Shown one piece after another: positions 1 to 12,902 of a stretch of 13,256 nt of DNA. The notes under the pieces were generated by a model, which made no database searches, had not been told where the DNA came from, and worked only from the letters and a program-made list of their open reading frames with translations. This stretch comes from a virus. The DNA lies in the UHGV virus genome UHGV-0086716, one strand, 5' to 3'. How positions within the stretch are numbered: position 1 is the stretch's first letter; every line of letters starts with the position of its first letter. A program made the position numbers and the translations under genes.

Positions 1-708
1 GCCTATCTTGAAGTCCGTCGTAACCGGCTTGGTGAACCCATTGCGCTTCGTCCGGCGCTGGCGAAATACACGCGGCGGGGCAGTGACCTTGATACGTACT
101 GGTACCTCAGTGATGACGGCTCTGAATACGCATTCCGGAAGGGGGCTGTGTGTCATGTGCTTAACCCCGATATCAACCAGGAAATCTACGGGATGCCGGA
201 ATATATCGGTGGCCTGCTTTCGGTGAATCTGTCGAACTCGGCGGATACGTTCCGCAAGCTCTACTATGACAACGGCTCACATGCCGGGTGCATTGTCTAT
301 GTTGGTGCCGCCCAGGCAAACGCTGAAAGCGTGGAGGCGGTAAAGAAAACGCTCACGGAATCCCGTGGCAAAGGTGCGTTCCGCAATATCCTTCTGCACG
401 CGCCAGGTGGTGGCAAGGATGGCGTGCAAATCCTGCCGTTCCAGCAAATCACCGCGAAGGATGAATTCCTGAACATCAAGGGGAGTGCACGCGACGATAT
501 CCTTGCTGCCCACCGTGTACCGCCTCAGCTGATGGGGGCGATGCCTGACGGTAATGCCGCGTTCGGTGACGTTGAGAAAGCGGCGAGGGTGTTTTTCATC
601 AACGAGCTGCAACCTGTCATGGAGGCCATGAAGCATGTCAATGAATGGCTTGGTGTTGAGGTGATGCGCTTTAATCCCTATGCGCTGCTTCAGGATGACG
701 CCAGCTGA
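1..708 (+). CDS. Phage portal protein (gpQ-like), C-terminal part, 5'-truncated by window edge
   Basis: Frame 1 is open from base 1 to TGA at 706-708. Protein-like translation; position and orientation (last late gene, pointing at the cos-side region) match P2 Q. Family assignment is by context, not by verified motif. Confidence 0.65.
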   Translation, partial: AYLEVRRNRLGEPIALRPALAKYTRRGSDLDTYWYLSDDGSEYAFRKGAVCHVLNPDINQEIYGMPEYIGGLLSVNLSNSADTFRKLYYDNGSHAGCIVYVGAAQANAESVEAVKKTLTESRGKGAFRNILLHAPGGGKDGVQILPFQQITAKDEFLNIKGSARDDILAAHRVPPQLMGAMPDGNAAFGDVEKAARVFFINELQPVMEAMKHVNEWLGVEVMRFNPYALLQDDAS

Positions 709-1181: not shown

Positions 1182-1188
1182 CTGAAAC

Positions 1189-1212
1189 AAACGCCCGGAA
1201 CAGGGCGTTTTT
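1189..1212 (-). terminator. Rho-independent terminator ending the leftward early/A operon (plausibly bidirectional)
   Basis: Stem AACGCCC (1190-1196) / GGGCGTT (1203-1209), loop ggaaca, flanked by T-rich sequence on both strands; directly follows the stop of the last cassette gene (1214). Confidence 0.6.
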
Positions 1213-1213
1213 C

Positions 1214-1543
1214 TCATTTCTGCTCTCCCTTGTGTTGTGCGTTCTCCCTGATTATGTCATTGCATAAATCCACGCACTCATTGCAGATCCAAACAGATGG
1301 TCCGGCAATAATCTGTCTGACATCGTACTGGCTTTTGTTGCAGAAGCTGCAATAAAGCGTCTTCCCGACTGAAGTTGGTGTTTTGCTGGGCTCTCCACAC
1401 ACCAGTCGTTCGATGTCTCTTTCGCGCCGAAGAGCGATCTGGCTGCATACAGCTATTTTTTGCAGGTTGATGTTTTCTTTTTTCGCCAGTGCTTCAATTT
1501 GATCAATCAGTCGCTGCGCTTTTTCTCTGTCAATATATTGCAT
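1214..1543 (-). CDS. Small protein (109 aa) with C-terminal ClpX-type C4 zinc-binding domain
   Basis: ATG at 1543 preceded by GGAG with 8-nt spacer (the track's GTG at 1552 is less likely). C-terminal [38 protein letters not shown] closely matches the N-terminal zinc-binding domain of ClpX as I recall it (C-x2-C-x19-C-x2-C). N-terminal ~60 aa looks helical. Confidence 0.75.
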
Positions 1544-1557
1544 TGCGCCCACTCCGA

Positions 1558-1905
1558 TTACTGGGTTGCGATGACTGGCAGCTCTTCGCCAGCGCCGTAG
1601 ATAAACAGAATTCGCTTCATGACTTCGCTGCGCTTACAGGCTTCGATGACTGATTTTTCCTGTTGCCACTCAGCCCGTTTCGCCAGCTCCAGCCGTTCCT
1701 TTTCCGTTGGCTTCCGGTAATGCGTGATTTTGTCCGTGTACCCGTCCACAACCAGCAGCCCTTCGCGTACCATCTTTCCGGCGGCCTGATTGATTACAGT
1801 TCTTCTCACACCCAGTTTTTCGACCAGCTCCGGCGCGGAAAAACGCGGGTGTGTTTCCAGGTGGCGTAAAATGATTTCCTTTCCGGTCATTCTGGTGGGC
1901 TTCAT
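1558..1905 (-). CDS. Putative winged-helix DNA-binding protein (115 aa)
   Basis: Start re-called to ATG at 1905 (track gave 1974): AAGGAG 5 nt upstream and ATGA overlap with the upstream gene's stop. Segment [31 protein letters not shown] has an HTH/wing pattern. Confidence 0.65.
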
Positions 1906-2072
1906 TGGGCGGCTCCTTCGTTGTTCCGGCGTTCCCGGAGTTCGGTCAGTGCTGCCAGTAAATTTTCCCACCACGTTTCTTCCACAACCGGATTGTGTCG
2001 TGAAAGCAGCTGCTGCGCTGACTCAATCATTTTATTCAGGTCTTTGTCGCTGATCTTCCTGATGTCGTTCAT
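1902..2072 (-). CDS. Small hypothetical protein (56 aa)
   Basis: Start re-called to ATG at 2072, which has AGGAG 6 nt upstream; the track start at 2111 has no RBS but forms an ATGA overlap, so 1902..2111 remains possible. Acidic/helical; no recognisable domain. Confidence 0.5.
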   Translation of the reverse strand: MNDIRKISDKDLNKMIESAQQLLSRHNPVVEETWWENLLAALTELRERRNNEGAAQ

Positions 2073-2107
2073 GGTGTGCTCCTTTGGTTTGCTGTTTCTG
2101 GTCATGT

Positions 2108-2524
2108 TCATGGTCTTTGTTGCCTGCGTGATTGCCTGTTGGCGGCCGAATGCACATAGCGGGCAATTGCCGCTTTTCGGTTAACGACGGCCAGCGTTCT
2201 TGCCAGCTCTTCGTTGAGTTTTCTGGTCTGTTTTTCGTGGTATGCCTGCATGATTTTTCCTACGGGAGTCAGTGGTTCAGGCTCTGATATGGCGCGACGA
2301 GGGCGCACGGCAACGATGAATGCGCTTCTGTCGGTGTTGATTCTTGCAGCCAGGATGTCGGTCATGACGGTATCTGTGTTGCGATCGTGGTTTGCGATCG
2401 TGATCTCCAGTTCGTCGCCTGGCTGTGGTCGAACACTGACGCCGCTCAGCATCAGTGCCGGAATGCGTCCACTCATGATGGCGCTGAAATCATGGCGCTG
2501 GAGTACGCAATGGAATCGTGTCAT
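2108..2524 (-). CDS. Hypothetical protein (138 aa), first gene after A
   Basis: ATG at 2524 overlaps the A stop (ATGA) and has GGAGGTG upstream inside the A 3' end. Segment ELEITIANHD...DILAARI weakly resembles the start of DinI (unverified). Confidence 0.6.
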   Translation of the reverse strand: MTRFHCVLQRHDFSAIMSGRIPALMLSGVSVRPQPGDELEITIANHDRNTDTVMTDILAARINTDRSAFIVAVRPRRAISEPEPLTPVGKIMQAYHEKQTRKLNEELARTLAVVNRKAAIARYVHSAANRQSRRQQRP

Positions 2525-5010
2525 GGGTTCACCTCCGGTTGATCTGCTGCCACCAGGCTTCGTGATTTCTCATCCCAGTGCACAATCCGCCCGTCAGGCA
2601 GGCGAACGCGTGCACCTCTGTGTACGGAAAGTGCTGCGCCACTGTGTGGCTCCTCGCCCGTCGTGCTCAGTGCCGACTTGATCACGGTGGTGGTGACGTC
2701 AGCCAGCGGCAATGCTGCACGCACATCTATGACGTCATCGGGCGTGGTGGGGCCGCCGGTTTTCACGGTTTTTGTGTCAGATGGCGCATCTTTCAGCTGC
2801 CTGGTGAGTTGTTTTCGCTCTGTGGGGGTCAGTGACCTTAACCACTCACCCAAATCACCTCCCGGGACGACCAGTTTTTGTTCTTTCCTGGTTTCCGGTG
2901 GTGGGGTTTTACCCTCTCCGGTGTCTGTTTTTTCATCATGGGGACAGTTATTGCCACGAGTCCAAGGGGCGACAAAGTCGCCCTGAAGGTCAAAACCATT
3001 TTCGTGGGCGCTGTCTTTCACTTCTGGTTTACGCCTTACCAGCTTCCACTTGTCCAGGTGGGTGCATACCCTGGAGGATTCCCCTTTGAGCGGTGACCAG
3101 ATGCCGTAAATCTGTGCGCGCTGTTCGCCGTAATCATTAGGCTCATCTGCGATGTCATAGGCGGTACGAATCAGATAATCTTTGCGCGGAACCAGCACGC
3201 CCCCCTGCTTCTCGGTGTAGGTGGCAAAACACCCGGCGTCAGCGGCAGCCAGTACCGCATCCATGGCATCGTCTTCCAGTCGTCCGGGGCCCTGTGGATT
3301 GCGGGCCATCTGGCAGGCAAGGCGGCGCAGCTCGCGCCATACCTGTCGGGACGGAATACCAAAGAACTGAAACTGTCGGACACGGTGCAGGCGTGCCCAG
3401 CCTATGGCGTGCTCCACGCTCTCAGCCATTGGTTTTCCTGATTCGTCGTCAATGCGTGGCTTACCTGTTTTCGGGTCGATGCCATCCACGGCGCGGCTGT
3501 CCAGGTTTTTCCCGATATAGGTGGCGATGTAGCTGGTTGGCGTGCCTTTTGAGCCGTCAATGTATTCCACCTTAAAGCGTGGTGTTATGTCGTCGCCCAG
3601 TTCCTGACGGTCTTCACGGATGGCGATGTCCCGGGCTGCGTTCTCTATAGCCTTTGCGTTATCCGGATGGGTGAAGACCAGCATGTGCCAGTGCACGGTG
3701 CCGTCATGGTGTGGCTCCACCGTGCGGACGCCATACCAGCGCAGGCCGTCGCGGTTCAGCTTTTTGCGGAGGGCGGCAAAGAACTTGTTGACCAGGTAAT
3801 CACTGGAATCGCGAATGGTGCTTCCGTCCCACTTAGGGTTCAGATAACCGCGCTCCGTCGTGGCGTGAAACCTTGATGGTGCGGTGATGGTCACAAATAA
3901 CACTGTGTCGCCACGGGCTTCTGCCAGCAGTTCCATACCCTTCGTGGTCGCCATCATCTCGGCCCTGCGATTGACCGGGTTACTGATGCCTGCGTAATAG
4001 ACGGATTCAAGGTCAATAGTGAAGCCGTCCTCGTTTTCCAGTTCGAAACGTTTCAGGAAGTCGCGGGTTTTCTCGCGTTGTGCGCGGAACTCGCCCAGTG
4101 CGTCCTTACTCAGGTAGGGCGATGTTTTTCTGGAAACCAGACCGGCAGCACGCAACTGTTCTTCCCGCCATTCGCGGCGCAACCGCCAGAGTTTGTGGTA
4201 CCACCAGTCTGCGCAGTTCAGGCGAAGGATGGCGCCTGGCAGTCGTTCAACATCCGGTTCCGTTCTCCGGTTCTTGTCTGTTCTCAGCGCTTCGTAATGC
4301 GGTGGTATGGTGTGCAGGTGTAGCGCCATGCGGGCCAGTACCGGATATGCCTTCAGCATTACATCCACTGTCATCTCACCATCGCTGGCCCCGAAACCGT
4401 CGCAAAGTTTTTCGAAGGTTCTGCTGAACAGTATGGCCGTCATGGCTGCCAGCATTCGTGTCCGGCGTTCATCGAGCTGCGGCAGGTAAAGCAGGTTATC
4501 CAGATTGTCGCGCCCGGCAAGGGAACGGTAAGCCGGAGTCAGCCAGCGGCTGTTAGTGCGCTCCAGTCGTTTGAATATTTCGCGCAGTGTTTCGCTCGCG
4601 TAGCGGTCTGCCTGCCAGTTTTCCTCCCCTTTACGGCGTTCTGACTCCTGTTTTTTGCGCAGGATACTGAGTTTTTTAATAAGCGGATCCCGCAGATAAG
4701 GCGGTAACAGGCGCAGCGTGTCGTAGGCTTCGCTTACTGCATCACGTGCCCGTGGGGCAATCGCGGCGATTACCCGGTCCCGTGCTTCCTGTGCGTCCAG
4801 GTGTTTGTTAATCAGGCGCCCAAGCCTGGTCGCGGCGAAGTCTGCATCACTCAGTTCGCCGTCGGGCATCGCGCGACGGAGTGCATCCACCCGGTAGGCG
4901 TCCAGCCATGAACGAAGGGCTGAGGTGGGGGCGGGTGTTTCCCTTCTCCTCTCCTCTTGCCCTATGGCATGGCGTGGTTGTTGCCAGTCCCGGATGTACT
5001 CAGCTGCCAC
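2521..5010 (-). CDS. A: Phage replication initiation protein, gene A family (rolling-circle endonuclease), 829 aa
   Basis: Size matches P2 gpA-type proteins. HUH-type motif (GTVHWHMLVF) and tandem-tyrosine region (YIATYIGKN). GTG start at 5010 with GGAG upstream, 6 nt after the upstream gene's stop. Confidence 0.88.
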   Translation of the reverse strand: MAAEYIRDWQQPRHAIGQEERRRETPAPTSALRSWLDAYRVDALRRAMPDGELSDADFAATRLGRLINKHLDAQEARDRVIAAIAPRARDAVSEAYDTLRLLPPYLRDPLIKKLSILRKKQESERRKGEENWQADRYASETLREIFKRLERTNSRWLTPAYRSLAGRDNLDNLLYLPQLDERRTRMLAAMTAILFSRTFEKLCDGFGASDGEMTVDVMLKAYPVLARMALHLHTIPPHYEALRTDKNRRTEPDVERLPGAILRLNCADWWYHKLWRLRREWREEQLRAAGLVSRKTSPYLSKDALGEFRAQREKTRDFLKRFELENEDGFTIDLESVYYAGISNPVNRRAEMMATTKGMELLAEARGDTVLFVTITAPSRFHATTERGYLNPKWDGSTIRDSSDYLVNKFFAALRKKLNRDGLRWYGVRTVEPHHDGTVHWHMLVFTHPDNAKAIENAARDIAIREDRQELGDDITPRFKVEYIDGSKGTPTSYIATYIGKNLDSRAVDGIDPKTGKPRIDDESGKPMAESVEHAIGWARLHRVRQFQFFGIPSRQVWRELRRLACQMARNPQGPGRLEDDAMDAVLAAADAGCFATYTEKQGGVLVPRKDYLIRTAYDIADEPNDYGEQRAQIYGIWSPLKGESSRVCTHLDKWKLVRRKPEVKDSAHENGFDLQGDFVAPWTRGNNCPHDEKTDTGEGKTPPPETRKEQKLVVPGGDLGEWLRSLTPTERKQLTRQLKDAPSDTKTVKTGGPTTPDDVIDVRAALPLADVTTTVIKSALSTTGEEPHSGAALSVHRGARVRLPDGRIVHWDEKSRSLVAADQPEVNP

Positions 5011-5016
5011 AGCGAT

Positions 5017-5391
5017 TTACTCCGCGATGCTGTTCAGTGCGCCGAGGCAAACAGCGGTCAGGCGCTGGATTTCCTGCGCGGTGGCTTCAGGGCTTGCCCG
5101 GCGGTGCGTAATGCGAAGACTGTCGGAAATGACTTCAATGAGCACCGACGACGGGCACTGACAGATGCAAACAACACTTGCAATGGTGTCTTCAATGCGG
5201 GAGAGCGTGTAATTGCCCTGGTTGCAGGCAAGCAGGTAGCGGCCGTCAATGACAGTCTGACCATCGGGAAGTTGTGGTGCTGTGGGTTGCAACTTCCTGT
5301 ACATCTCGAAGCGATGGGCAACGCGATCTCGTGTACCGGCGTCGCTTTCGGTCTGAATCAGGTAAGTTACAAAATCATCGATGAGAATCAT
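5017..5391 (-). CDS. Hypothetical protein (124 aa) immediately upstream of A
   Basis: ATG at 5391 with AGGAGG 9 nt upstream; protein-like composition; same strand as operon. Confidence 0.65.
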   Translation of the reverse strand: MILIDDFVTYLIQTESDAGTRDRVAHRFEMYRKLQPTAPQLPDGQTVIDGRYLLACNQGNYTLSRIEDTIASVVCICQCPSSVLIEVISDSLRITHRRASPEATAQEIQRLTAVCLGALNSIAE

Positions 5392-5463
5392 TGTGGCAAT
5401 CCTCCTGTTGCAGATGTGCGGAAGCCTCCCGCGTACAGATACGGGATAGCTTCCGGATGTGGT

Positions 5464-5685
5464 TTATCGGTGCTGGTTGATGAGGCTTTGCAGTTCTGCC
5501 AGATCTTCGGCGAGATAGCTGAAGACAGCAGCGCAGTAACGGTTTGATAGCGCGTGCGTGCGCTCATGCAGCATGTTGATGTGCATGATTTGCGCGACGC
5601 GTGTTGCGCGGAAAAGTCTGCGGTTGATTTCGCTGCGTATGTGAATACGCTCAGCGCGGGCGCGCTGTTGCTTGCGGTTTGCCAT
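5464..5685 (-). CDS. Small basic hypothetical protein (73 aa)
   Basis: ATG at 5685 with AGAGG upstream; arginine-rich N-terminus suggests nucleic-acid binding. Confidence 0.5.
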   Translation of the reverse strand: MANRKQQRARAERIHIRSEINRRLFRATRVAQIMHINMLHERTHALSNRYCAAVFSYLAEDLAELQSLINQHR

Positions 5686-5728: not shown

Positions 5729-5917
5729 GAGTTGAGAATCTCGGGGTGGCGAGACGTACGGGGTTCTCAACACCGGCTAACACAGGACCCGGCCCGACCG
5801 AAGTCGGCCCCGTACGCCCCGCCATAATTCTGACGCGAAAAAGACGTGGCGATACAGTACGCACAAAAAAACCGCTGGCGCGGCTGTGCGCTGTGTTAGT
5901 CAGCGGGTTGAGAATCC
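5729..5917. repeat. Structured non-coding island with GTTGAGAA(T/C)C repeats and nested perfect stems
   Basis: GTTGAGAATC at 5731-5740 and 5907-5916 (direct); inverse copy GTTCTCAAC at 5763-5771. Nested TCTCG/CGAGA (5739-5743 / 5750-5754). Perfect 9-bp stem CGTACGGGG / CCCCGTACG (5755-5763 / 5808-5816) enclosing CCGAC-cgaa-GTCGG (5794-5807). No ATG-initiated ORF with an RBS in this stretch. Confidence 0.45.
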
Positions 5918-5982
5918 CGGCACCCGTTTTATGAGGTGCAGCGGAAATGTAACCTGACTCAACGAGCGCTGGCAAGCGGTTT

Positions 5983-6010: not shown

Positions 6011-6071
6011 CGCGGCGCAAAAATGGAATGCGCCGAAGGATAGCGGCGTTTATTAACAATGGAGGTTGTTT

Positions 6072-6539
6072 ATGCCTGTTGCTATGGAGCAAGCAGACAA
6101 GAAGATTTTTTTCCATCTGTGGTACAGCTACTGGCTGGAAGAGATGGTTTTCATACTCAGCAATAAAGCCGCTGCCGTGTTGCGCGCCGGGGCACTGATT
6201 GCTGCGGTATTCTCCTTTCTTCTCGTAGGTTTTCCCGTCCTGATGAGCCTTTGCGGGCTGGCGTTTTTTGTTTTTTCCTGGTTTTGCAGCAAGTGTGAAT
6301 TCGTCGCCGAACTGGCGTGCTGGCAGAAACAGAGCTACCTTCGTCTGATTACGCAAAGGGATTCCATGAGCACTGAACGCCTCATTGAGCGCATTCTGTA
6401 TCTGGAAGAAACGAACAGCGCATTCATGAAGGCGTTTGTCAGGCCTGCAAAAAACAAAGCGAGCGCATCTGTTGGTCTGTCTGCCAGCGAGCATTTGCGT
6501 TACTCCGAAAGGTTAATCTGCTGGTTGTGCGGCTTCTGA
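6072..6539 (+). CDS. Embedded plus-strand gene: predicted membrane protein (155 aa) with cytoplasmic C-terminal domain
   Basis: ATG at 6072 with GGAGG 6 nt upstream and own promoter. Two hydrophobic helices (AAAVLRAGALIAAVFSFLLVGFPVLM, SLCGLAFFVFSWF); codon usage looks enteric. Opposite strand to the surrounding operon; 3' end overlaps the DUF4406-like gene by 27 nt. Confidence 0.6.
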   Translation: MPVAMEQADKKIFFHLWYSYWLEEMVFILSNKAAAVLRAGALIAAVFSFLLVGFPVLMSLCGLAFFVFSWFCSKCEFVAELACWQKQSYLRLITQRDSMSTERLIERILYLEETNSAFMKAFVRPAKNKASASVGLSASEHLRYSERLICWLCGF

Positions 6540-7394: not shown

Positions 7395-8321
7395 TCAGCA
7401 GTCCGGACAGTAGCCACCGCCATGGCGACCGCATGGGTCGCACTGTTTCAGGGTGGCGATAACCTCCGGTGCGGGTTCGCTGGTTCTTGCGCCAACGCTT
7501 CTCGGTACCTGGATGCAGTTCATCCGGTATCCCCGATAAATGCGCCGTGTTTCCGGTGTGTCGGAATTGGAGATGGTGATGCTGGTCATGCCGCCCGTTT
7601 CCTGTGAAAGACGGTCAAGTGCCGCTCTCAGGCGAACGTGCTCGTGTTCATCGAATGGTTTTCCGTAGGCGGTGAAATTGTTCTTGCCACTGAATCGCAG
7701 GTAAGGGGGATCGCAGTACACGCAAAGCGTGTTGCCCATGCCGAACAGGTGACTGGCAGAGTTCAGCGTATCCTTAAAATCTGCGTGGATAAGCAGCGTT
7801 CGGGTGCTGTTTGCCTTGTCTGCAAATGCGCGGATTTCCCGCTCAGGGAAGTAGGGCTTGCGGTAGCAGCCGAAAGGCACGTTAAAGTCACCTTTTCCGT
7901 TCACGCGGAACAAACCGTTAAAGCTGTGTCGGTTCAGGTACAAAAACATGGCGGCCAGTCGCAGTTCACGGCGGTCGCTTATTCCCGTTCTGCTACTCAG
8001 GAAGGCATGATTCTCTGCGTTAAAGGTTTCGCGAATGATGAGATAGTCACCCCTGTTGTTGTGGTTCAGGAACAGGGTTTTCGCCTCGTCGATCAGGCTG
8101 TCGGTGTTGTCCCTGACTTGCCGGTAGAAATTGATCAGCGCACCATTGGAATCCCCCAGGATGTAGCGCTTGTAACTGGTGTTCATGAATACCGATGCGC
8201 CGCCCGCAAACGGCTCAACCAGGCAGTCTGCTTCTGGCAGATGCGCCTTCAGTGTGTTCATGATGCGGCTTTTTCCGCCCACCCATTTCAGCGGTGTGCC
8301 GGATAACAGCTCTTTGCTCAT
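7395..8321 (-). CDS. dam: DNA adenine methyltransferase (Dam-like), 308 aa, with short Cys-rich C-terminal tail
   Basis: KWVGGK, EPFAGGASVF (SAM-binding), FNVPFG, DPPY catalytic motif, NFTAY and ISNSDT all align with E. coli Dam as I recall it. AAGAGG RBS 7 nt upstream. Extra tail CDPCGRHGGGYCPDC. Confidence 0.9.
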   Translation of the reverse strand: MSKELLSGTPLKWVGGKSRIMNTLKAHLPEADCLVEPFAGGASVFMNTSYKRYILGDSNGALINFYRQVRDNTDSLIDEAKTLFLNHNNRGDYLIIRETFNAENHAFLSSRTGISDRRELRLAAMFLYLNRHSFNGLFRVNGKGDFNVPFGCYRKPYFPEREIRAFADKANSTRTLLIHADFKDTLNSASHLFGMGNTLCVYCDPPYLRFSGKNNFTAYGKPFDEHEHVRLRAALDRLSQETGGMTSITISNSDTPETRRIYRGYRMNCIQVPRSVGARTSEPAPEVIATLKQCDPCGRHGGGYCPDC

Positions 8322-8336
8322 AACGCGGCCTCTTTG

Positions 8337-8546
8337 TTATAGGTTTCGTGCGTTAATAAATCCCATGACGCCCCGTTGTTTTTGCTCAGCAGTCGCCAGC
8401 GAAAACCGATTCTTATTACCAGGTAGTCGTGGGGTTTTATGCGTGAAAAATTCCGCACGCCGTCGCGGAATAAACGCAGCGATGCGCGGGCTTTTCTTTC
8501 CACGTTCAGGGGGGGGGCAGCAACACACATTCAGGATGGCGACCAT
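8337..8546 (-). CDS. Possible small leader ORF (69 aa) containing the C9 tract; coding status doubtful
   Basis: ATG at 8546 with GAGG upstream, but the product is proline/arginine-rich and not obviously globular. The alternate frame (8318..8530) ends in an ATGA overlap with the dam start. Confidence 0.3.
   Translation of the reverse strand: MVAILNVCCCPPPERGKKSPRIAAFIPRRRAEFFTHKTPRLPGNKNRFSLATAEQKQRGVMGFINARNL
8509..8517. repeat. G9 homopolymer (C9 on the coding strand) in the leader/small ORF upstream of dam
   Basis: Nine consecutive G at 8509-8517, inside the 234-bp interval between the exonuclease stop and the dam start, within codons 10-13 of a small ORF (8337..8546, minus). Confidence 0.9.
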
Positions 8547-10571: not shown

Positions 10572-11096
10572 TTACTGGTTGCCTCCACTGTATTGGTGTT
10601 GCTCCAGTTTTGACTTTCTTCCTGTGTAAACCCGCTTTTCATTGATGGTCTGGCAGTCTTCTTTGTTTGCCGGGGAAAACTTTCTTTTCTGTCGGTCGTA
10701 CGTCCAGTAGCTTTTCCAGTTGTGCCATTCTGGCGGCTCGCATTCTGGTAATTCGTCAGCCAGCTTGTCCCACTCTCTGGCGTTAAACCACCATACGCCA
10801 TCCGAATTTTCGTCCTCAGGGTTTGAACGGGTCTTGTGTCCAGGCATCTGATTTCGCTGAAGCGCCACGCGCAATGCAGCTTTTGTCAACCCGATATAGG
10901 CCGCCCCTTTTTCAAGTGAGCAAAGTCCGGCTACCGGGCCATCCAGTCGCAAGGTTGCCCCTTTTTTGTAGGTGCGTTTTTTCTTTTCCTCTTGGTGTTC
11001 ATCGTCGTTTGCCGCACCAACGGATTCGGTGATGTCGCTACTTCCGTGGGGTTGCTGGGTGTCAGATAACTCTTTATCGGCAATGAAGTCCCGCAT
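10572..11096 (-). CDS. Cox-like early regulator/excisionase with N- and C-terminal extensions (174 aa)
   Basis: First gene of the leftward operon, divergent from the repressor gene; AAGAGG 7 nt upstream of ATG at 11096. Central segment AAYIGLTKAALRVALQRNQMP...GVWWFNAREWDKL resembles the P2 Cox HTH core as I recall it. Confidence 0.55.
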   Translation of the reverse strand: MRDFIADKELSDTQQPHGSSDITESVGAANDDEHQEEKKKRTYKKGATLRLDGPVAGLCSLEKGAAYIGLTKAALRVALQRNQMPGHKTRSNPEDENSDGVWWFNAREWDKLADELPECEPPEWHNWKSYWTYDRQKRKFSPANKEDCQTINEKRVYTGRKSKLEQHQYSGGNQ

Positions 11097-11155: not shown

Positions 11156-11179
11156 AAAGATACTCATACGAGTATCTTT
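11156..11179. promoter_or_regulatory. Perfect 10-4-10 palindrome in the divergent switch region (candidate operator)
   Basis: AAAGATACTC-atac-GAGTATCTTT, perfect dyad, 21 nt upstream of the repressor ATG and within the 103-bp interval between the divergent starts. Confidence 0.55.
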
Positions 11180-11199
11180 TGCGAGAGGTTAATACTCAA

Positions 11200-11541
11200 A
11201 TGGTTATCTTGTCAATAGACTATGCAAAAAAGCTACGTCAAATACGCAAGGCTGAAGGGCTAACGCAAAAGGAATTTGCGGATATTACGGGGTTGTCTTT
11301 AGCTGCCATAAGGAACTATGAATCAGGGCAAAAAAGCGCCAGAGCCAAAATTGTTGAGGCGGTTCTCCAGGTTGATCGATTTGAAAAATACATGATGTGG
11401 CTAATAAAAGATAAGACAATGCCTGTTGCCGGTCAGATAGCTCCGGCTCTCTCTCTTGATGGCTCCATTCAGTCGGAGGACGATCAGGATTCAATCCCAG
11501 CCACCCAAAAATCATCCCGATCAGGCCGCAATGCTGGCTAA
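11200..11541 (+). CDS. Immunity repressor, P2 C-like (HTH), 113 aa
   Basis: Motifs YESG, FEKYMMW and GQIAPAL match P2 repressor C as I recall it; HTH (LTQKEFADITGLSLAAIRNYESG). ATG at 11200 with GAGAGG upstream preferred over the track's TTG at 11179. Immediately upstream of int, as in P2. Confidence 0.8.
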   Translation: MVILSIDYAKKLRQIRKAEGLTQKEFADITGLSLAAIRNYESGQKSARAKIVEAVLQVDRFEKYMMWLIKDKTMPVAGQIAPALSLDGSIQSEDDQDSIPATQKSSRSGRNAG

Positions 11542-11610: not shown

Positions 11611-12603
11611 ATGTCGATTAAGCAACTCAAAGACGGGCGTTATAAGGTTGATGTAAGGCCGCAAGGGGCGGAAGGAAAGCGGATCCGTAAGATTTTTACC
11701 CTGAAGTCAAAGGCACAGGAGTTTGAAAGGTATGTTTTGCAGAATTTCCACGATAAACCGTGGCAGGCCAAGCCAGCTGATCAGCGTCGGTTATCCGAAC
11801 TGATAGATGCCTGGTGGGTGCTTGATGGTCGGAATCAGCCTTACGGGGATACTTACAGGGTCAGGCTGGAAAAAATAAACCGTGAGATGAGGGACCCCCG
11901 CGCCAGTGAGATGACGCGAAAGTTTATGCTCGGGTATCGTTCAGATAAATTACAGGCCGGATTAATGCCCTCCAGTGTTAATCGTGATTTGTGCGCCTTG
12001 TCTGCAATGTTTACCGCGCTGATTGATGCGGAGGTTTTCCATAATGAAAACCCGGTGCGTGGAATACGTAAGCTCAAGGTCAGGAATACAGAAATGGCCT
12101 TTCTTTCAGATGATGAGATTGATCGGCTCCTTGAGCGACTCGAGGGTGATGCGCGTCGCGTTGCTGTTCTGTGTCTTTCCACTGGCGCAAGGTGGGGGGA
12201 AGCGGCTGGTTTGCGTGGTGAGCATATCGTTGGTAACCGCGTAATGTTCTTTAACACAAAGAATGGAAAATCCCGCGCAGTTCCTGTTTCTGATACGGTG
12301 CTTTCGTTGATAAAAACCCGAAAAACTGGGCTATTGTACCAGGCTGATTACATCCGTTTTCGGGAGATCCTTCAGGAGGTGAAGCCGGACTTGCCGAAAG
12401 GGCAGGCCACCCATGTCATGCGTCATACATTCGCTACACATTTCATGATGAATGGCGGAAATATCGTTACGCTACAACGAATCCTGGGCCATGCCACGAT
12501 TCAACAAACGATGACGTATGCGCATTTTTCGCCGGACTTTTTACAGGATGCAATCAGCTTTAATCCGCTGGCTGAAAGTGTCCATAAACTGTCCATCGAT
12601 TAG
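11611..12603 (+). CDS. int: Tyrosine integrase, P2 Int-like (330 aa)
   Basis: GGAGGGG RBS 6 nt upstream. Catalytic-region pattern LCLSTGARWGEAA, HVMRHTFATHFMMNGGNIVTLQRILGH, TMTYAHF (R...HxxR...Y). Last phage gene before host DNA. Confidence 0.92.
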   Translation: MSIKQLKDGRYKVDVRPQGAEGKRIRKIFTLKSKAQEFERYVLQNFHDKPWQAKPADQRRLSELIDAWWVLDGRNQPYGDTYRVRLEKINREMRDPRASEMTRKFMLGYRSDKLQAGLMPSSVNRDLCALSAMFTALIDAEVFHNENPVRGIRKLKVRNTEMAFLSDDEIDRLLERLEGDARRVAVLCLSTGARWGEAAGLRGEHIVGNRVMFFNTKNGKSRAVPVSDTVLSLIKTRKTGLLYQADYIRFREILQEVKPDLPKGQATHVMRHTFATHFMMNGGNIVTLQRILGHATIQQTMTYAHFSPDFLQDAISFNPLAESVHKLSID

Positions 12604-12718
12604 TTGTAACTTGTGCTTATTTGCTCCCCTTGTTTTGATTTACTCATTGAAAAATAAGCAAATCATCAAGGGGAGTAAGTAGCGTTAAACCTCCTGCGGG
12701 CGCTTTTTTTGTCTCCCT
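12604..12718. other. Prophage/host junction containing an att-like core
   Basis: GAAAAATAAGCaaatcatcAAGGGGAG (12649-12675) resembles the P2 att core as I recall it. An upstream segment (12612-12630) carries reverse-complement copies of the same sub-motifs. T7 run at 12704-12710. Confidence 0.4.
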
Positions 12719-12732
12719 TTGATACCGAACAA
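12719..12732 (+). promoter_or_regulatory. FNR-type binding site upstream of dmsA
   Basis: TTGAT-accg-AACAA matches FNR consensus TTGAT-N4-ATCAA at 9 of 10 positions, 171 bp upstream of the dmsA ATG; dmsA is a known FNR-activated anaerobic gene. Confidence 0.5.
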
Positions 12733-12902
12733 TAATTACTCCTCACTTACACGTAATACTACTTTCGAGTGAAAATCTACCTATCTCTTTGATTTTCAAA
12801 TTATTCGATGTATACAAGCCTATATAGCGATCTGCTATAGAAATAATTACACAATACGGTTTGTTACTGGAATCAATCGTGAGCAAGCTTGAGTGAGCCA
12901 TT

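Follow-up and report, generated by a model that had tools for sequence, protein, structure and literature searches.

Four small genes at positions 1214–2524 of the virus genome UHGV-0086716 raise the question of whether such genes, lying between the replication gene A and the cos side of a P2-like prophage, are anti-phage cargo, an induction module, or a part of the replication operon itself. The 13,256-nt stretch of DNA that was analyzed (the window) covers one end of an E. coli prophage that is P2-like (P88/Xuanwuvirus-type), and the four genes, designated g1 to g4 here, form the last 1.3 kb of its minus-strand early region, directly 3' of the gpA gene. The original prediction, made from the sequence of this DNA, had placed them where P2 carries old and tin, had treated them as one cassette, and had offered an SOS-type module like the tum region of phage 186 as the alternative. 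Our analysis shows that the cassette is not a recognizable defense system, nor is it an SOS module. The locus is a new combination of known kinds of protein, namely Orf91-like ASCH, Ren-family and ClpX N-domain proteins, and it probably represents the distal part, without a promoter of its own, of the replication (A) operon in a temperate P88/P2-like phage, where it carries four accessory genes of the lytic phase. The features on which this reading depends are as follows.

2521–5010, minus strand: gpA-type rolling-circle replication endonuclease, 829 aa (Pfam Phage_GPA, 4.5e-117; phrog_91, 3.5e-238)
2108–2524, minus strand: g1, 138 aa, predicted ASCH/PUA-like fold, read as the P2 Orf91 counterpart
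1902–2072, minus strand: g2, 56 aa, small protein (phrog_14672, 7.5e-34)
1558–1905, minus strand: g3, 115 aa, winged-helix protein, lambda Ren homolog (BLASTP, phrog_142, MarR_2)
1214–1543, minus strand: g4, 109 aa, helix followed by a ClpX-type N-domain (zf-C4_ClpX, 1.1e-17)
1183–1216, minus strand: terminator-like hairpin at the operon end (fold energy; inverted repeat I1; conserved in P88)

Four genes chained to gpA

The original prediction described four chained minus-strand genes (138, 56, 115 and 109 aa) joined by ATGA overlaps or by spacers with a ribosome-binding site (RBS), and this arrangement could be read directly from the junctions. The gpA stop codon overlaps the g1 ATG (ATGA, 2521–2524), which is preceded by GGAGGTGA. 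A spacer of 35 nt separates g1 from g2, with AAAGGAG located 6 nt ahead of the 56-aa start of g2; the g2 stop codon overlaps the g3 ATG (ATGA, 1902–1905), which is preceded by GAAGGAG; and the 14-nt spacer between g3 and g4 contains GGAG. Through these overlaps and Shine-Dalgarno-containing spacers, g1 to g4 are translationally chained to gpA. A second in-frame ATG of g2 at 2111 makes a 69-aa form possible. The 56-aa start has the better RBS, the Prokaryotic Genome Annotation Pipeline (PGAP) takes the upstream ATG in relatives, and in one related locus (L043) g2 must start upstream because the internal ATG is missing there.

Gene calls on eight other contigs with an identical g4 gave the same 138/56/115/109 products, and each product matches a PHROG family (E values of 5e-47 to 6e-79, and 7.5e-34 for g2). 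Pairwise ratios of nonsynonymous to synonymous substitution (dN/dS) against diverged homologs were 0.12–0.48 across g1–g4 (0.22–0.39 for g2), so they are real genes rather than chance open reading frames (ORFs), and they are under purifying selection.

A promoter scan detected no promoter-like site at 600–2700 on either strand. On the coding strand from 5975 to 1214 no sigma-70-like site was found, the nearest being that at 5975–5946, upstream of gpA. At the other end, the original prediction had closed the cassette with a strong terminator. The hairpin at 1183–1216 is indeed stable (-17.6 kcal/mol, z = -3.9, with none of 200 shuffled sequences as stable) and is kept at the equivalent boundary in phage P88, but its U-tract on the minus strand is modest (GUUUGUUUC), so that termination here is plausible, not proven. 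The A- and U-tracts of the hairpin pair with each other, as in bidirectional terminators, and a consensus terminator scan scored it on the plus strand only. We infer from this organization that g1 to g4 would be made together with gpA in lytic growth and would be silent in the resting prophage.

Identities and predicted roles of the products

The structure of g1 was predicted by AlphaFold as a beta-barrel (residues 3–75, with a predicted local distance difference test score, pLDDT, of about 90) and a long C-terminal helix (residues 87–135), and the barrel in this model is PUA-like. Foldseek searches with the model returned phage DUF3850/ASCH proteins. P2 Orf91 is a DUF3850/ASCH protein by Pfam and follows A with the same ATGA overlap. 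Because of this structural match and the same place and overlap after A, we take g1 to correspond to P2 Orf91 in both fold and position, the fold being that of a predicted model. The ASCH and DUF3850 profiles (PF04266/PF12961) matched none of 14 g1-family members at E<=1. The 'weak DinI-like stretch' that had been noticed in the 138-aa protein was not substantiated; a DinI/Tum reading of g1 was rejected, with no Pfam DinI match at E<=1 in the 14 family members and an hhalign E value of 0.64 against 186 Tum. The family is very narrow, as an exhaustive HMMER search of 1.84 billion proteins yielded 4 representatives and none was present in 50,697 deposited phage genomes. One of the 4 matches, P0099 (823 aa, with SpaA-type repeats), was judged to be spurious and amplified by its repeats.

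The second gene was seen solely directly behind g1, and the organisms named for its 75 homologs were E. coli only. We regard g2 as a putative small partner-like protein behind g1. By analogy with Orf91, which presumably has this role in P2, g1 (perhaps together with g2) may be a nucleic-acid-binding companion of A.

The assignment of the 115-aa protein as a winged-helix protein was confirmed by a MarR_2 match (2.6e-06), and its closer affiliation came from BLASTP, which aligned g3 with lambda Ren at 42% identity over 100 aa (E = 4e-25), covering Ren residues 1–93 of 96. It also matched phrog_142, 'Ren-like exclusion protein', over 104 of 116 profile positions (3.9e-28). By its sequence, g3 is a member of the lambda Ren family. 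The word 'exclusion' in the PHROG label of Ren denotes escape from Rex exclusion, not the causing of exclusion. A g3 homolog was present in 170 deposited phage records, all at less than 60% identity and with a lambdoid/Stx-type organism tally, and no deposited P2-like phage genome contained one. Among the matches listed, the homologs are at most 43% identical to g3 and adjoin a P-type helicase-loader gene. In lambda, ren is the last gene of the O-P-ren replication cluster, and its start at 40280 overlaps the end of P at 40283. The position of the Ren family at the tail of the replication operon is thus constant, and g3 keeps this position despite an unrelated initiator.

In classical genetics, the loss of ren renders lambda sensitive to Rex exclusion. 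By analogy, g3 would most likely shield the phage, while it replicates, from abortive exclusion of the Rex type by lambdoid prophages resident in the host, a protection that would be useful for a P2-like phage in species full of lambdoid prophages. The ren gene has also been described as 'likely involved in DNA replication', and contacts between Ren and Rex proteins were reported from two-hybrid experiments (bioRxiv 10.1101/2021.04.19.439022).

The fourth product, g4, was predicted by AlphaFold2 (AF2) to consist of a long helix (residues 6–49), a disordered linker (49–59) and a C4 zinc-binding N-domain (60–107). The ClpX zinc finger previously assigned to this 109-aa protein was clearly recovered (zf-C4_ClpX, PF06689, 1.1e-17, 64.1 bits against a cutoff of 27), and the ClpX N-domain entries 1ovx/2ds5 of the PDB were matched at E values of about 3e-20. 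The protein is identical to E. coli ClpX at 32 of 40 residues (80%) over K11–E50. Its C65, C68, C87 and C90 align with the ClpX zinc ligands C15, C18, C37 and C40, and ClpX F17, A30 and I47 (numbered with the initiator Met) are retained, F17 and I47 being those of the hydrophobic pocket; L13 is also kept, and G19 is replaced by N. The DNA of g4 aligns with E. coli clpX at 74% identity (H115), which suggests that the domain was captured from the clpX gene of an enterobacterial host.

Since the N-terminal helix is conserved across the g4 family, the relatives constitute a coherent two-part protein family (phrog_6797). The AAA+ module is absent from g4, which ends 9 residues after the domain and reaches only 47.7 bits with TIGR00382, over positions 7–50, against an equivalog cutoff of 370.75; g4 is therefore not a ClpX (TIGR00382/PRK05342). 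A partial ClpX match was the only result of an NCBIfam search with the cassette proteins. In RefSeq/GenBank many g4 homologs, including P88 gp19 and D6 orf93, are named 'carboxylate--amine ligase', and the name 'ClpX C4-type zinc finger protein' is used as well. The ligase name looks like a propagated mis-annotation, because the domain content gives no support for it.

The N-domain of ClpX docks lambda O, MuA, UmuD', FtsZ, MqsA, SspB and RssB (PMC7804408; PMC8808172), and lambda O is degraded by ClpXP through this domain (PMC7804408). The literature searched contained no characterized phage ClpX N-domain protein and no described function for the P88 gp19, PhiR44_2 and D6 orf93 proteins. The isolated zinc-binding domain (ZBD) of ClpX reportedly inhibits lambda O degradation in trans. 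On this background, g4 would most likely interfere with or re-target the N-domain-dependent recognition of substrates or adaptors by host ClpXP; the free protein could titrate N-domain ligands or pair with the N-domains of ClpX itself. We put forward only tentatively, as possible rather than probable, the wider proposal that the g4 family consists of viral ClpX N-domain mimics that switch off or re-aim one branch of ClpXP during lytic growth and that, together with the Ren homolog, form a small counter-defense arsenal. The effects of such mimics could be the stabilization of phage proteins, or a block of the ClpXP-dependent release of toxins from antitoxins in abortive infection.

Modularity and competing explanations

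All cassette parts were searched by tblastn over 67 related loci (L numbers). In these loci g1 always lies directly after gpA, despite gpA identities of 50–100% and portal identities of 37–100%, and the parts occur in the following combinations.

g1 alone: L051–58, L067
g1 and g2: L017, L063–66
g1 and P88gp20: L059–62
g1, g2, g3 and a tail-less SSB-family OB fold: L001, L002, L016, L040–48
g1, g2, g3 and ZBD: window, L007–14, L018–19

In P88-type phages the ZBD gene is present and g1–g3 are absent. The alternative occupant of the fourth slot is a 105-aa oligonucleotide/oligosaccharide-binding (OB) fold of the single-stranded DNA-binding protein (SSB) family (PF00436, 1.7e-13), located at 5150–5467 on the minus strand of L001 and found also in L002, L016 and L040–L048; the acidic tail at the C-terminus of bacterial SSB is missing from it. 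Because one occupant is a tail-less SSB and the other an ATPase-less ClpX domain, both are truncated copies of host proteins without the part that engages host machinery. At L018 and L019 the g1–g4 proteins are 92–99% identical to those of the window beside a gpA that is only 58–61% identical, and this divergence of identities places breakpoints at or within the 3' part of A and indicates that the cassette moves between A alleles. Among 5,426 complete E. coli genomes, g1–g3 were found in 44 and the exact g4 in none (best match, 84% nucleotide identity), and g4 homologs were found in 229 (about 4%), with nearly half of the places on plasmids. Since the parts assort independently, g1–g4 are nested, separable modules and not one four-gene system, and the single cassette of the original prediction has to be given up.

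The expectation that the interval between A and the cos side holds variable cargo was upheld, both by these genome counts and nested or alternative sets and by a published survey, in which 18,150 E. coli loci showed 1,650 arrangements of the gpA–gpQ interval, a diversity hotspot of the P2 family (PMC9122126). Relatives of the cassette are listed there in Table S5A as 'hypothetical', 'SSB' and 'zf-C4_ClpX' (PMC9122126). The hotspot location, where several validated defense systems reside (PMC9122126), is also the ground for supposing that g1–g4 are anti-phage or superinfection-exclusion cargo expressed by the prophage, like old and tin of P2. The variable content of the interval, a TumE-family toxin–antitoxin pair in the same gpA–portal interval of a related prophage, and the PHROG label 'exclusion protein' on g3 point in the same direction. 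We nevertheless consider this explanation improbable. As had been stated before, none of the four products resembles old or tin, and the analogy of position fails as well, because the orientation of the genes and their coupling to A match Orf91, not tin/old, and no promoter-like site was found. PADLOC gave no match for g1 and g2 and only generic winged helix-turn-helix (wHTH) or insignificant matches (E>=0.0015) for g3 and g4, hence no significant defense match below E = 1e-3. No effector-type domain (nuclease, NTPase, membrane or toxin) occurs in any of g1–g4, the label on g3 refers to escaping Rex exclusion, and the parts assort independently. An induction module of the SOS or antirepressor type, as in the tum region of 186, we regard as very improbable; the position after A and the pair of winged-helix and zinc-finger proteins can be cited in its favor. 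However, tum is driven by a promoter of its own, p95, that carries a LexA site, and the LexA boxes here are not above chance: the window has 3 matches to CTGT-N8-ACAG at one mismatch, where 4.15 would be expected. No match sits in a promoter context ahead of the cassette, and the one nearby (2423–2438, one mismatch) falls inside g1. DinI/Tum similarity is absent, and a separate Derepression-family gene (5464–5685) with C4 and isrK RNAs is already present upstream of A.

A further explanation, which overlaps with the favored one and is compatible with it, is a dedicated replication-accessory module in which all four products serve the rolling-circle replication by gpA. In such a module g1 would bind nicked, single-stranded or modified ori DNA, g3 would be a DNA-binding cofactor in line with the proposed replication role of Ren, and the gene in fourth place would encode an OB fold of the SSB type or else a ClpX N-domain, the latter serving to protect gpA, or some other replication protein, against ClpXP or to bring in ClpX for remodeling. 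The coupling of g1–g4 to A, the constant place of g1 beside A like that of Orf91, and the closing position of Ren-family genes in the replication operons of the lambdoid records listed are consistent with it, as are the suggested involvement of ren in replication (bioRxiv 10.1101/2021.04.19.439022), the SSB-family alternative (PF00436, 1.7e-13), the occurrence of the ZBD gene behind the ParM/ParR maintenance genes in P88-type phages, and the N-domain-dependent degradation of lambda O by ClpXP (PMC7804408). On the other hand, most related phages have g1 only or none of g2–g4, and P88 is without g1–g3; because most relatives replicate without them, none of g2–g4 is required for replication. In D6-like phage-plasmids, moreover, the ZBD gene is part of early operons rich in morons and lies away from replication genes, and gpA as a ClpXP substrate is without support. 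We therefore rate a module devoted wholly to replication as unlikely, though a more serious competitor than the explanations above.

The reading of the locus as an operon extension with lytic-phase accessory genes has several points to its disadvantage. The g1 model was built on a shallow alignment of 14 sequences, one of five models being confident, and the comparison of g1 with P2 Orf91 was not significant at the sequence level (hhalign E = 0.24). The homolog search with g2 gave no functional lead. The anti-Rex role of g3, a divergent homolog, would have to be carried over by analogy from the classical role of lambda Ren. In g4, ClpX H23 is replaced by Y (H is found in some relatives) and L12 by T, and among 12 phage family members this position is never Leu (T/M/A). 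In ClpX, L12, L13 and H23 are needed for binding of the MqsA degron, the L12S and H23A variants are defective for it, and H23 is also one of the residues implicated in binding of the SspB tail (PMC8808172). With L12 and H23 altered, a plain decoy for ligands of the MqsA/SspB type is doubtful, and the specificity of the g4 domain may be altered relative to that of the ClpX N-domain. The promoter scan was consensus-based, so a weak or activator-dependent promoter could escape it, and the genes might then be expressed in the lysogen. The gpA–gpQ hotspot is moreover enriched for defense genes (PMC9122126).

The locus matters for how such intervals are read. The gpA–portal interval is now treated as an anti-phage reservoir, but part of it can be an extension of the replication operon with lytic-phase genes, and cataloguing the whole interval as candidate defense would mislabel the genes of the operon tail. 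A Ren homolog outside the lambdoid phages offers a second, independent system for learning how Ren acts, a question dating from the 1980s. The free-standing ClpX N-domain family, carried by prophages and phage-plasmids and present in roughly 4% of the complete genomes of E. coli, is a candidate viral modulator of ClpXP substrate selection, and it is the part of the locus most worth experiment. If neither the Ren nor the ClpX lead holds, the locus is ordinary variable cargo.

Surroundings and comparison with known systems

The remaining features of the prophage end are as follows.

11611–12603, plus strand: integrase
11179–11541, plus strand: helix-turn-helix (HTH) repressor
From the Cox-like gene (10572–11096) down to 1214, minus strand: early region of roughly 10 kb
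148–708, plus strand: 3' end of the portal gene
709–1182, no strand: non-coding conserved cos-proximal region that separates the portal gene from the cassette (alignment with relatives)

The cos-proximal region 709–1182 is the fixed outer border of the variable interval and aligns with P88 and with the E. coli G1/2 and Bongo prophages. It contains three copies of TTT(C/T)GTGCAC (1081–1090 and 1163–1182) and, just past the portal stop codon, a perfect 11-bp inverted repeat CGGGGCATAAA/TTTATGCCCCG (735–759) that forms a portal-side hairpin; both are conserved in P88 and the E. coli relatives. The P2 cos 19-mer was absent from the window at up to 3 mismatches (<=3). A 232-aa ORF at 277–975 on the minus strand, overlapping the 3' end of the portal gene by 430 nt, is probably spurious, because it has no Pfam, PHROG or PADLOC match and is not called on related contigs.

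Upstream of gpA, Rfam matches above the gathering score were obtained on the minus strand for C4 antisense RNA (5742–5829, 77.8 bits) and isrK (5865–5939, 62.3 bits). Both lie within a 390-bp non-coding gap, followed on the same strand by the Derepression-family gene, a 124-aa ORF and gpA, and the promoter-like site at 5975–5946 immediately precedes isrK/C4 and the derepression gene. This arrangement resembles the P1 c4-icd-ant unit or an RNA-controlled antirepressor unit of the Gifsy IsrK type, placed at the head of the A operon.

The sole gene-sized opposite-strand ORF in the early region (6066–6539, plus strand, 157 aa) has hydrophobic, membrane-like segments and no Pfam match, and gene calls on related contigs include it. 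Because of its orientation, it is a better candidate than g1–g4 for a gene expressed by the prophage, in lysogenic conversion or exclusion. A 70-aa ORF (8318–8530, minus strand) with a ParE-like toxin domain (PF24732, 8.5e-18) sits just upstream of a Dam-type methylase gene (7395–8321), the start of which it overlaps; an obvious antitoxin partner was not found. The enterobacterial small RNA STnc130 has a full-length Rfam match (122 bits) at 12678–12812 on the minus strand, immediately past the integrase gene and at or near the prophage attachment junction.

Compared with P2 old/tin, g1–g4 occupy the same cos-adjacent interval of highly variable content. In P2, however, tin and old are convergent genes of the opposite strand that have their own mapped mRNA start near cos and are expressed in the lysogen, whereas g1–g4 extend the A operon; in P2 it is Orf91, not tin/old, that is coupled to A through an ATGA overlap. 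From Orf91 itself, g1 differs by an added C-terminal helix of 50 residues. The 186 tum gene has the same position after A but possesses its own p95 promoter with a LexA site, of which no counterpart was found here.

Among proteins with the two-part architecture of g4, those of P88 (gp19), PhiR44_2 and D6 (orf93) are 49–69% identical to it over the full length. The ZBD gene of P88 and PhiR44_2 lies inside the same gpA–portal interval, but it follows ParM/ParR there, and in P88 gp20 is a neighbor as well. In D6 and other phage-plasmids of roughly 90–110 kb, the gene lies in mosaic, moron-rich early operons away from replication genes, and the g4 homolog has no constant partner gene in D6-like elements, its neighbors being, for example, Ea22-like and DUF4752 genes. 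Relative to E. coli ClpX, the g4 domain stops where the N-domain of ClpX stops (PDB 1OVX, 2DS5-8). It differs in lacking the linker and AAA+ ATPase, so that g4 cannot unfold anything, and in having a conserved N-terminal helix of ~50 residues that ClpX does not have.

For g3, the comparison with lambda Ren shows both proteins as winged-helix proteins of ~100 aa with a conserved C-terminal C(K/R)xSxxMKRxLxxYG. g3 is longer by 5 residues at the N-terminus and by about 10 at the C-terminus, and it belongs to a P2-like myovirus whose rolling-circle initiator is gpA, not to a lambdoid O/P phage. In both phages, nevertheless, the ATG of the gene, ren or g3, overlaps the stop codon of the preceding gene at the tail of the replication operon.

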